64,000 bases of DNA from positions 21,261 through 85,260 of the IMG/VR virus record IMGVR_UViG_3300005077_000026; one strand, 5' to 3'. The DNA is from a virus (lineage: Duplodnaviria; Caudoviricetes). Positions within the stretch are counted from its first letter, which is position 1. The number at the start of each line of letters is the position of its first letter. The notes beneath the pieces were generated by a model, which was not told the DNA's origin, ran no database searches, and worked only from the letters and a program-made list of their open reading frames with translations. Position numbers and translations under genes: made by a program. Shown here in pieces: positions 55,632-58,474 of this stretch.

Positions 55632-56932
55632 GTTTTCTGGGCGAAATATTTTGGGGGAGGCCCCTGGGGTGTTAGAGTGACGCACTATCTCAGAGAAATC
55701 CAGGGGGTGCTACATTGTGTCAGTTTTGCGCGATTCCATGAGGGTTTGCGCGATTAGTTTACATAATACAACTTATCAGACTACTGCCTATCCACGAGGA
55801 GTAGTACTTTATGCTTTACTTCCATAGATCAATTACTTCTTTTGTTTTACTTCTCATGCAGTGAGTGTATGCATACTTATTTAAACGAATGATGGAGGCA
55901 TCAAGTCCTCTAACACCCTCACACATATGCACATAACAATCAACATGCCACTTAATAAAGTTAGCTTTGCATAACTCTATAAGACCATGCTGCCATAGTG
56001 ATATGCAACTTATAAGATAACGTCCAAGCAGAGAACAACGTCCTGAGCTAACAGAGCAACAGCTTGACTCACTGCATACGCTACAGACTAACTACTCTGA
56101 GAACATGATAGAAAAAAATCATATTCTGAAATTTGTGCATGGAACTTGCTTGCTGTATGTAGTTCCATTGTTTTGTGTGCATATAGCTTTCTCTAACAGA
56201 TAAGAATGCATTCTTTACAGCGGCTTCTGCTTTGAATGATCTTTTAAGTTTTCATAGATTGTGCATGATTATTGCTTGCTGGAATCTAAGAGAATAATCA
56301 TATTTCATGCTTTTTGTTGTATAACTTGTTTTTCATATGCTTTTAAACTGCATTAGAGACGAATTACAGCGAGATTTTGAAAAAATAGAGAATCGAAAAA
56401 ACTTAGTAATATTCAATAGTTGCAGAAATTAAGAAAAAAACGCATAGAATCGTATTAGCTGCTGGCCGATCGCCTCGCTATCAGCCTCTAATGCGTTTTC
56501 GAGAATTTGATTTTAAAAAATAAATTTGATTTATTTTTGCAGAATTTGAGGAGATAGCATAGATTATGCATTTAAGCAAGTTCTATGCACAAGCCACTTG
56601 TTTTATCTGATTTTTTTAGAATATTTTAATAATTGATAAAATTTTACAAAGTGTAAAAAAAACTGACACAAGCTCGAAGAACAGCTAACTAACTGAGATA
56701 ACTACAGATTCCTGCAAATTCTATTGATTTTTGCATTTTGCTATGTCAGTTTTTTTATCACTTGCGATACAACTGCATAACTACATGAGCACTTGTTAAC
56801 ATAATTTAGAGTGGTAAGATACTGAATTGATTAAAAATATAAACATTTTTAAAAATCTTTTAAAATCTTATAGTCCTTGCACGGGACTTGCTTATTATAT
56901 AACCAGTTGTTTTTGAGTCAAGCAAAAAAATC

Positions 56933-56961
56933 TTGACAAGTTCTTTAAAATGTTTTAAGCT
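56933..56961 (+). promoter_or_regulatory. sigma70-type promoter, probably the early promoter
   Basis: A-tract UP-like element, TTGACA (56933-56938), 17-nt spacer, TAAGCT (56956-56961). Confidence 0.65.
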
Positions 56962-56967
56962 TCTTTT

Positions 56968-57440
56968 AAGTTTTTAAATTTGTTCTTTGACATAGCATAC
57001 TCAATTAGTCAAGCTTTACGTCTCTTGACTTGAATCTAAGTCAAGACACTGCTTGAGCAAGTAGTTATAGAATATGCGAAGCGAATTGAGCGAAGCGCAC
57101 AGCGAAACAGCTAGCGCAGATTTTCGCTCTGCTCTGCATACGCGATAAGTAAACGTATTCGAGAGTCAATCAAGAGTGATTCAGCAAGCTTTCAATTAAA
57201 GCGAGCTAATGAAGCGAGCGAGCATAAAAAACAAAAGATATGACTTCATTACAAAGCAGAGATTAAAAGCTTAACAAAAACGTTCTGATAGCAAAATTCT
57301 TGATTGTTCGACTTTGCAAAATGTAAAAACGAAAACTGAGTAGATAGCGAATTGAGCAAAGCAAGTATAGCAGTGCTGCATTAATTCTATTCTTAGCTTA
57401 ATATCTGAGTGCTTGCTTGATAGCGATATTCGAGGGCGGC
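56968..57440 (+). ncRNA. putative large structured non-coding RNA or leader
   Basis: No ORF of 60 aa or more; many nested stems found by eye, several with G-U pairs (see findings). Ends are estimates. Confidence 0.45.
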
Positions 57441-57494
57441 AGCTGACAAGCAGAGCATATAATAAACTGCAAAAAGCAGAAAGCGATAAATCAC

Positions 57495-57701
57495 ATGATT
57501 ACTTTCTATAATCGCTATTCGCTTGAGCAGCAAATAAGCTTTATTCATGCTTCTTTTTCTAACTTGATTGCTGTTAGTTCTGACTCTTTAAAAAATGCGA
57601 TTTTTGAATTGAATTTGTTTGATTGCTTCTCTGATATCAAGTCAAAAATCGTCAACGAAAAAGAAGCTTGCTATTCTATTTCGTTTCGCATTAATGCTTA
57701 A
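57495..57701 (+). CDS. small hypothetical protein (no Gly, Pro or Trp)
   Basis: 68-aa ATG ORF enclosed by a 24-bp perfect inverted repeat. Confidence 0.5.
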   Translation: MITFYNRYSLEQQISFIHASFSNLIAVSSDSLKNAIFELNLFDCFSDIKSKIVNEKEACYSISFRINA

Positions 57702-57802
57702 AACTTTAAAAGCTTTTTGCAGTTTATTATATGCTATGCTTGCTTATTATCTCAGCTGTTGCAATCAGTACTTCTCATATCTCATTCCTCCGAATTGCAG
57801 TA

Positions 57803-57872
57803 AAATCAAATAGTTAGCAGCAAGCGAAGATTTACATTTACACTTTTTCGCTTGCTGCTTTCTATTGATTTT
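57803..57872. repeat. long hairpin / inverted repeat
   Basis: AGCAGCAAGCGAA (57816-57828) / TTCGCTTGCTGCT (57847-57859) perfect 13 bp, extended by AAAATCAAATAG / CTATTGATTTT. Confidence 0.85.
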
Positions 57873-57933
57873 TTGACTTGTTAAAAAAGCTTGAGATATG
57901 AGCAAGAGAAAAAGCAGAAAGTGAGCTATTGCT

Positions 57934-58212
57934 ATGTTAAACGACAATCTTGCAAAATTGATTGAATTTGAAAAATACGTTGCATCTTTTAAAGTTTTGA
58001 TTGATGCGGCAGACTATCAAATTTCGATTGATGCTAACAACGGACAAGTAAATGTTTTAATCGAAAATGTTTATTGTTATTTGCTTTCTGATATAAAAAG
58101 AGATGCAATCGAAAAGAAAGTAACTTCTTTGAATTTTGATGATTTTATTATTGAGAATTGCAATCGGTCTGCTAATTTCTATGATATTTCTTTCTGCTAT
58201 TCTATCGCATAA
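57934..58212 (+). CDS. small hypothetical protein
   Basis: 92-aa ATG ORF enclosed by an imperfect inverted repeat of about 40 bp. Confidence 0.55.
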   Translation: MLNDNLAKLIEFEKYVASFKVLIDAADYQISIDANNGQVNVLIENVYCYLLSDIKRDAIEKKVTSLNFDDFIIENCNRSANFYDISFCYSIA

Positions 58213-58474
58213 TTCTATCGCTTTTCTCTTGCTCAAATTCTCAAGCTTCTTTAACAAGTCAAGATAATTGAAAAATCAAATTTGACTTGTGAATTCAGCA
58301 AGTTGCGGCTGGATAGTTGTATAGTTGTATAGTTGTATTCTCATGTAGTTGAGCAGTTATGCAGTAAGATTGCTATGTTAAGGCACACGAGCTACACGAG
58401 GGAGGCTCGTGGTGAGCTACACTGGCATGGCAATCTATCAAATATCCCCCCGACACAAATGGAGGTATGAGGCC

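Follow-up and report, generated by a model that had tools for sequence, protein, structure and literature searches.

Why would a phage remove GG, on either strand, from a short stretch of its genome and retain it everywhere else? This question is raised by IMGVR_UViG_3300005077_000026, an IMG/VR record of an uncultured Caudoviricetes virus that is linear, 85,260 bp long and rated 99% complete. We analysed positions 21,261 to 85,260 of the record (the window; 64,000 nt, with coordinates on this scale unless stated otherwise). An earlier, sequence-only reading had pointed to a segment nearly devoid of GG and CC next to the junction of the terminase and early genes, and had suggested that it is the first-injected end of the DNA, kept free of modifiable or cleavable GG sites so that host RNA polymerase can read it, or a defence nuclease cannot cut it, before early proteins act. 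Here, we define the ban, follow it through related phages and consider whether the banned word may be read by the phage's own DpdA, an enzyme of the type that inserts 7-deazaguanines into DNA.

A local ban on GG and CC

Expected numbers of GG/CC were calculated from base composition, and the core of the zone (56,903-58,382) was compared with 5,000 mononucleotide (composition-preserving) shuffles. The core contains 11 GG/CC steps, against 82.5 ± 7.7 in the shuffles (minimum 55). The sequence-only reading had been obtained by hand count and its numbers were reproduced: between 56,941 and 58,380 there are 8 GG and 2 CC against 80.4 expected, and the empty interval that it had placed at 56,905-57,433 is a 531-nt gap at 56,903-57,434 with no GG or CC against 33.7 expected, a chance probability of ~1e-15 at matching composition. 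Computed over the whole genome, the GG/CC odds are 0.13 in the core and 1.12 in the remainder, so that the target is kept everywhere but in the zone. This is the sole such zone in the 85,260 bp, the longest GG/CC-free gap elsewhere being 87 nt; the ban is extreme and unique within the genome. Its extent, described previously as running from about 55.9 kb to an abrupt end at about 58.4 kb, also held. The left flank (55,894-56,902), which is AT-rich and has no open reading frame (ORF) of at least 40 aa, is half depleted (25 GG/CC against 52.7 expected), and the 680 nt nearest to the terminase gene terS (55,214-55,893) are normal (64 against 50.9). Counts are also normal immediately right of the core (58,383-59,128; 99 against 128.8), and the right edge is therefore abrupt.

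On entering the zone the G+C content falls from 0.47 to 0.33. Within it, the GC step is 2.4-fold over-represented, with an absolute density above that of the remaining genome; the odds of CG are 1.08, against 0.63 elsewhere; and AG/CT is mildly raised (1.26). The core palindromes include AGCT 15 times, TGCA 12 times and AAGCTT 9 times. Given the excess of GC, the raised CG and the AAGCTT sites, the ban reflects neither G+C nor palindrome avoidance, as had been argued from the frequency of GC, CG and AGCT; general palindrome avoidance is ruled out. GATC is absent from the same 1.48-kb core.

The zone occupies most of a 3.2-kb divergent gap between a leftward arm carrying terS and terL and a rightward early arm that starts at 58,409. 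Its strict part begins ~1.7 kb from terS, beside a pair of putative promoters standing back to back at 56.9 kb; there is no obvious DNA end at that point, and no end repeats are present in the linear record. The leftward member (56,894-56,921, minus strand), which faces terS/terL, is a sigma-70-type promoter by consensus match (TTGACT-16 nt-TATAAT, 11/12 matches). The rightward member (56,933-56,961, plus strand; TTGACA-17 nt-TAAGCT) is a candidate with a weak -10 element. The strict ban starts 30 nt upstream of the rightward TTGACA and stops just short of the first early gene to contain GG (58,409-59,128, plus strand), ahead of its ribosome site; this gene has a G+C content of 0.59 and normal GG/CC. 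The region contains numerous TTGAC(A/T) words along with long inverted repeats, and one 470-nt stretch of it carries no ORF.

Two small ORFs on the plus strand lie within the core, and their composition is as the sequence-only reading gave it. The first (57,495-57,701, 68 aa) has no Gly, Pro or Trp, whilst the second (57,934-58,212, 92 aa, acidic) lacks Pro and Trp and contains a single Gly. Searches of the zone ORFs against Pfam and PHROGs gave nothing usable; the 68-aa product has no family match, and the 92-aa product is an orphan that matches only itself among 5.8 billion proteins. Each is framed by an inverted repeat: 57,447-57,742 for the first (31 nt, 97%; arms 57,447-57,477 and 57,712-57,742) and 57,873-58,262 for the second (~40 nt; arms 57,873-57,912 and 58,222-58,262). 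The sole CC steps in 56,904-58,382 lie in TTCCTCCGA (57,785-57,793, plus strand), which resembles an anti-Shine-Dalgarno sequence. Three tandem 8-nt units (TGTATAGT-like) at 58,310-58,341 are placed exactly on the right edge of the zone.

The rule in related phages and its dialects

Searches of 50,697 phage records with the region (megablast/blastn) and with TerL (tblastn) gave no match. Relatives were taken from IMG/VR as 80 loci retrieved by TerL (45-82% identity), of which at least 20 have a zone at the matching place upstream of terS/terL. The most extreme is free of GG/CC over 1,357 nt (L048; P ~1e-32), followed by 1,187 nt in L014/L015, 808 nt in L023 (at a G+C content of 0.42), 684 nt in L002, where the free stretch lies inside a 2.3-kb zone with 16 GG/CC against 157 expected, and 556 nt in L009. 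Shorter stretches occur in L063, L018, L024, L077 and L016; the class assignment of L018, L022 and L024 is tentative. There are thus zones with no GG/CC over 556-1,357 nt at G+C contents of 0.29-0.43, and some relatives' zones reach 0.42-0.51 with the banned words still at zero. No other dinucleotide is banned anywhere in the related loci.

Comparison of zone with zone among the relatives (blastn/tblastn) revealed no homology except in the near-identical L014/L015 pair; what is conserved is the rule and not the sequence. On the TerL tree, zones are found in both halves of the family, and one 12-row clade has none. The window's early gene at 58,409-59,128, outside its own zone, is homologous to a 113-aa gene inside the zone of L009 (E 2e-6), so that no single gene fixes the boundary. 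The L048 zone makes up a complete cassette of three genes, whose ribosome sites lack GG and whose terminator hairpins lack GG/CC; one of its products, of 187 aa, has no Gly, Pro or Trp. In the L023 zone a 164-aa gene is accompanied by palindromic TTGACA operators. In five further loci (L069, L071, L073, L074 and L080) the TerL matches span ~2.8 kb rather than 1.8 kb, which suggests that their terminase gene may hold an intein or intron.

Trinucleotide scans of the zones showed that the banned word has dialects. In the window phage it is GG on either strand. In L061, L067, L040 and L055, GGA, GGG and GGT are all at zero (35-45 expected for each) and GGC is enriched 2.3-3-fold (2.5-fold in L061); that is, only GGC is allowed and GGD is banned. 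In L013 and L017/L019 (genome G006), GGA and GGT are near zero, so that runs of G must end in C (GGW banned). In L057, GGA and GGG are near zero and GGT is normal (GGR banned). In L044 (genome G008) and L052, TGG is at zero, CGG occurs 0-2 times and AGG is enriched 2.2-fold, so that only AGG is allowed (YGG banned). One genome also has a second banned word: in G001, 47,415-48,310 (L016, 8,049-8,944), GAT/ATC is absent from 895 nt where ~33 are expected, in a stretch that overlaps the GG/CC-poor zone. Placed on the TerL tree, the dialects appear as small clades within a background of all-GG lineages, and the dialect changes from one TerL clade to its neighbour. Taken together, they read as simple GG-core words with lineage-specific flanks.

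The ban extends to the ribosome sites. Genes outside the zone use GGAGG. Inside it, GAAAG(C/T)GA(G/T) sits 7-8 nt ahead of the ATG of both window ORFs, as GAAAGCGAT at 57,480 for 57,495-57,701 and as GAAAGTGAGCTA at 57,918 for 57,934-58,212, and GAAAG(C/T)GAG occurs again at 57,198. The same word is found 5-8 nt ahead of zone-gene ATGs in at least seven loci (the window, L002, L009, L014, L022, L040 and L048). Set against the 16S tail, AAG-U-GAG equals AAGGAG plus one inserted base, and we infer that GAAAG(C/T)GAG is a Shine-Dalgarno stand-in that avoids GG. Selection therefore reaches both coding sequence and signals, as judged from the Gly/Pro/Trp-poor proteins, the altered ribosome sites and the GG/CC-free terminators of L048. 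The ban covers promoter, genes and terminators and is maintained by selection. Since both strands are purged equally, it acts on double-stranded DNA.

DpdA and other possible readers of the banned word

The link to DpdA drawn by the sequence-only reading finds support in the gene content of the phage. At 93-920 (plus strand) the window encodes a DpdA-like guanine transglycosylase (phrog_887, E 2.9e-41; no match to the Pfam TGT model PF01702). Upstream of it, the genes of the preQ0 pathway are all present (QueC twice, FolE, QueD and QueE; genome 1-21 kb). Pfam supports these assignments (GTP_cyclohydroI 9e-48, PTPS 2.7e-34, Radical_SAM and two QueC matches), and PHROGs agrees; GATase domains occur in one further protein, separate from the QueC matches. 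A tblastn search with the DpdA matched 237 phage records, including those of CAjan (33% identity) and Iggy (30%). In the DpdA tree the family's enzymes form a clade of their own, and those of CAjan and Iggy are close to one another despite their unlike motifs; with seven family sequences, the tree is too small to test against dialect.

According to two papers on phage DpdAs, these enzymes recognise short motifs that differ even between close relatives (PMC7544227, PMC10484667), which bears out the context specificity assumed beforehand: GA and GGC for CAjan (PMC7544227) and GA alone for Iggy (PMC10484667), the only two phages with a mapped DpdA motif. A keyword search of both papers found no mention of a motif-free or unmodified zone, and we found no description of such zones in the open-access literature. 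Iggy itself provides a parallel. At the end of its record (NC_070970.1, 59,901-60,628) there are 17 GA/TC against 88 expected, where the genome median ratio is 0.79. This is the strongest dinucleotide anomaly in Iggy, continues more weakly over 1-900 and coincides with a divergent early intergenic region; nanopore mapping places terminal repeats of 1,091 bp in this phage. GG/CC is enriched 1.5-fold in the same stretch. The depleted step is the motif of Iggy's own DpdA, which favours the notion of DNA kept free of modifiable sites. In CAjan the GA/TC dip is weak (0.43) and confined to one intergenic region.

Co-occurrence of dpdA and zone was examined in whole records of relatives. Two near-complete, zone-bearing genomes are dpdA+ (G001, 91% complete, all-GG zone; G006, 93%, GGW-type zone), as is G008 (68%, YGG-type zone), and the complete dpdA- genome G009 (100%) has no zone. 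G007 (98% complete) is dpdA+ without a zone. In G008 (C1, 23,671-25,470) a frame of 608 aa contains the DpdA homologue, split into two matching halves ~940 nt apart, which suggests that this DpdA may carry an insertion or intein.

We propose that the zone would be an early expression cassette, made up of two divergent promoters and of small genes with their signals, which is written without the word recognised by the phage's own DpdA. Because the cassette would lack that word, packaged DNA would be free of 7-deazaguanine in the zone, with the remaining genome modified. The banned word would be GG here and the narrower GGD, GGW, GGR or YGG in relatives. An unmodified cassette would probably be a safe harbour, in which host RNA polymerase reads the first genes and the DNA stays intact, even where the cell attacks modified guanines or stalls on them (through type IV-like nucleases or Dag-type glycosylases). 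Host glycosylases that destroy 7-deazaguanine phage DNA do exist (bioRxiv 10.1101/2025.10.29.685425). That the zone is free of the phage's own DpdA motif, stays unmodified and so shelters the first genes is a serious candidate, which on the present sequence comparisons falls a little short of probable. The general form of the proposal we put forward with more reserve: it is possible that each lineage's banned word (GG, GGD, GGW, GGR, YGG and once GAT) is the recognition word of its own DpdA, that enzyme specificity is thereby readable from sequence, and that one cassette is kept unmodified so that first genes work in cells attacking or stalling on 7-deazaguanine DNA.

Several observations favour DpdA as the reader: the Iggy result, the co-occurrence of dpdA with zones, the second word of G001 and the fact that the banned sets can be written in simple IUPAC form. 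The GAT/ATC ban in G001 recalls, by analogy, the two-motif enzyme of CAjan. About 25% of the G residues in the whole window stand before another G, which fits the 16-32% replacement of G reported for DpdA phages (PMC10484667), and we count this in favour. Like the CAjan and Iggy systems, the window phage has the enzyme family (~30-33% identical) and preQ0 pathway genes, its family has short G-centred words that differ between close relatives, and Iggy's record end is likewise poor in the enzyme's own motif. In contrast to those systems, the window phage would have a GG-type motif, which has not been reported for a DpdA.

Other observations weigh against this proposal. Carrying dpdA is not sufficient, as G007 lacks a zone and 11/12 cultured dpdA phages sampled have no clear one; nothing like the zone of Iggy or of the window was seen in CAjan, RHEph06, Quinobequin-P09, DoCa3, VpKK5, ART, 9g, Dp-1, phiSM, R5C or Hedgerow. 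No dpdA was found in the zone-bearing fragments G002, G004, G005, G011, G012 and G016, a result that is uninformative because these contigs are 20-51% complete. The benefit of an unmodified cassette is something that we infer throughout. Finally, GGC, a DpdA motif in CAjan, is allowed and enriched in some zones, which fits at least equally the idea that modification protects GG. As an interpretation, the sequence-only reading stands in part: it is supported by the DpdA, the preQ0 genes and the Iggy parallel, and its modifiable sites are favoured by the GA depletion in Iggy; it is not supported by the dpdA phages without zones, by the different rule in G006 or by the start of the strict zone at a putative promoter pair ~1.7 kb from terS, and its cleavable sites, in the form of GG protected by modification, remain in play through the GGC allowed in some zones.

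The strongest rival supposes an external reader of GG/CC, either CRISPR-Cas recognising a protospacer adjacent motif (PAM; NGG or CC) or a GG-core nuclease, that acts on the first-entering or first-expressed DNA until the products of the cassette disarm the defence; the allowed contexts GGC and AGG would then be DpdA-modified and so hidden. Of the two readings that fit, we consider this the less likely, though several observations speak for it. GGC, the proven CAjan motif, is just the word allowed and enriched in L061/L067/L040. The zone is a neighbour of terS, near which the DNA of siphophages usually ends. T5-type pre-early DNA is a classical precedent: particular restriction sites are absent from the first-step-transfer DNA of T5, which would concern single sites and not a whole dinucleotide. 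In T5 and BF23 (bioRxiv 10.1101/866236; PMC10644984) that DNA has long inverted repeats, as does the present zone, which would likewise hold small early genes and host-type promoters, set apart beside a presumed DNA end, whereas T5 proteins are not depleted of Gly/Pro/Trp and two-step injection is a feature of T5. The principle invoked by the sequence-only reading, that first-entering DNA may lack restriction targets, is published for Autographiviridae (Murciavirus), in which absence of the motif from the leading region alone allows escape from Type I restriction (PMC12455610). There too the target is missing only from the early region and kept elsewhere; however, it is a bipartite host restriction-modification motif with a known reader, whereas the window family avoids a 2-3-nt word over 0.3-2.3 kb with lineage dialects.

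For CRISPR-Cas the words match, the PAM being NGG for Cas9 and CC for type I-F, and PAM avoidance would need both strands to be clear; dPreQ0 within a PAM blocks Cas9 in vitro (PMC10484667). However, the remaining genome is not depleted, so that any PAM avoidance would be local and near total rather than spread across the targetable genome, and PAMs do not explain flank-dependent dialects unless modification is invoked. More generally, an external reader is opposed by the 680 GG/CC-normal nucleotides nearest to terS and a strict ban that begins at a putative promoter, by the abundance of other restriction-type palindromes (the AAGCTT, AGCT and TGCA counted above, which speak against general site avoidance), and by an Iggy terminal zone that is rich in GG/CC and poor in the enzyme's own motif.

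It is very improbable that the ban is a by-product of some other constraint, such as promoter-dense and easily melted DNA, structured early RNA or a replication origin. The TTGAC(A/T) words, inverted repeats and ORF-free stretch speak for it, as does the AT-richness of the region in the window phage (G+C 0.33). However, relatives at 0.42-0.51 still have no banned words, the zones span whole protein genes (187 aa in L048, 164 aa in L023), and no argument from melting or structure predicts that one GG context is enriched and the others banned; an Rfam search of the region (E<=1) returned only sub-threshold chance matches and no family at threshold. The GC-rich, coding zones of relatives already go most of the way to refuting a regulatory by-product or AT-richness. 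It is hardly credible that the zone is a mutational footprint, left on both strands by a cytosine deaminase with a CC context, or that it was recently inserted from a donor poor in GG/CC: the drop in G+C content and the slight rise in AG/CT would fit, but there are intact ORFs, ribosome sites and hairpins that have been adapted to the ban, the GC step is denser than elsewhere, the rule is kept by non-homologous zones in diverged relatives, deamination could not produce dialects that allow and enrich only GGC or only AGG, and similar DNA was not found in phage records, so that the comparative data contradict both hypermutation and foreign origin.

The surrounding locus and implications

The features around the zone are those of a terminase arm and an early arm. 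On the left, the presumed small terminase subunit (terS; 54,413-55,213, minus strand) is assigned from its position and has no family match, and the large terminase-like protein (terL; 52,488-54,416, minus strand) served as the marker for related loci. Between terS and the zone (55,539-55,635, plus strand) are two 34-nt direct repeats (94% identical) that are rich in GG/CC (CCAGGAGGAGGCC...), each ending in ATGAGC; these are possibly a packaging/terminase-binding or regulatory site. Among the early genes to the right, 60,982-61,575 encodes a pentapeptide-repeat protein (ANLRG repeats; Pfam E 1e-42). Further away, at 1-20 kb of the genome, the replication genes (DnaB-like helicase/primase region) include Pfam matches to Intein_splicing and PT-HINT. 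No tRNAs were found.

The purging of a dinucleotide from 1-2 kb, at the price of stripping three amino acids from proteins and rewriting ribosome sites, means that some factor reads a 2-3-nt word with lethal consequences. Should that factor come from the host, the zones would indicate a widespread GG-core defence that acts on first-entering DNA. If it is DpdA, the zones would give a sequence-only read-out of the modification motif for hundreds of uncultured phages, and hypermodified phages would need an unmodified 'ignition' cassette. Iggy-like phages allow direct testing, having a known motif and, at the end of the genome record, a stretch that is poor in it. Were the proposal true, it would reveal a previously undescribed cost of DNA hypermodification, together with a counter-move to that cost.

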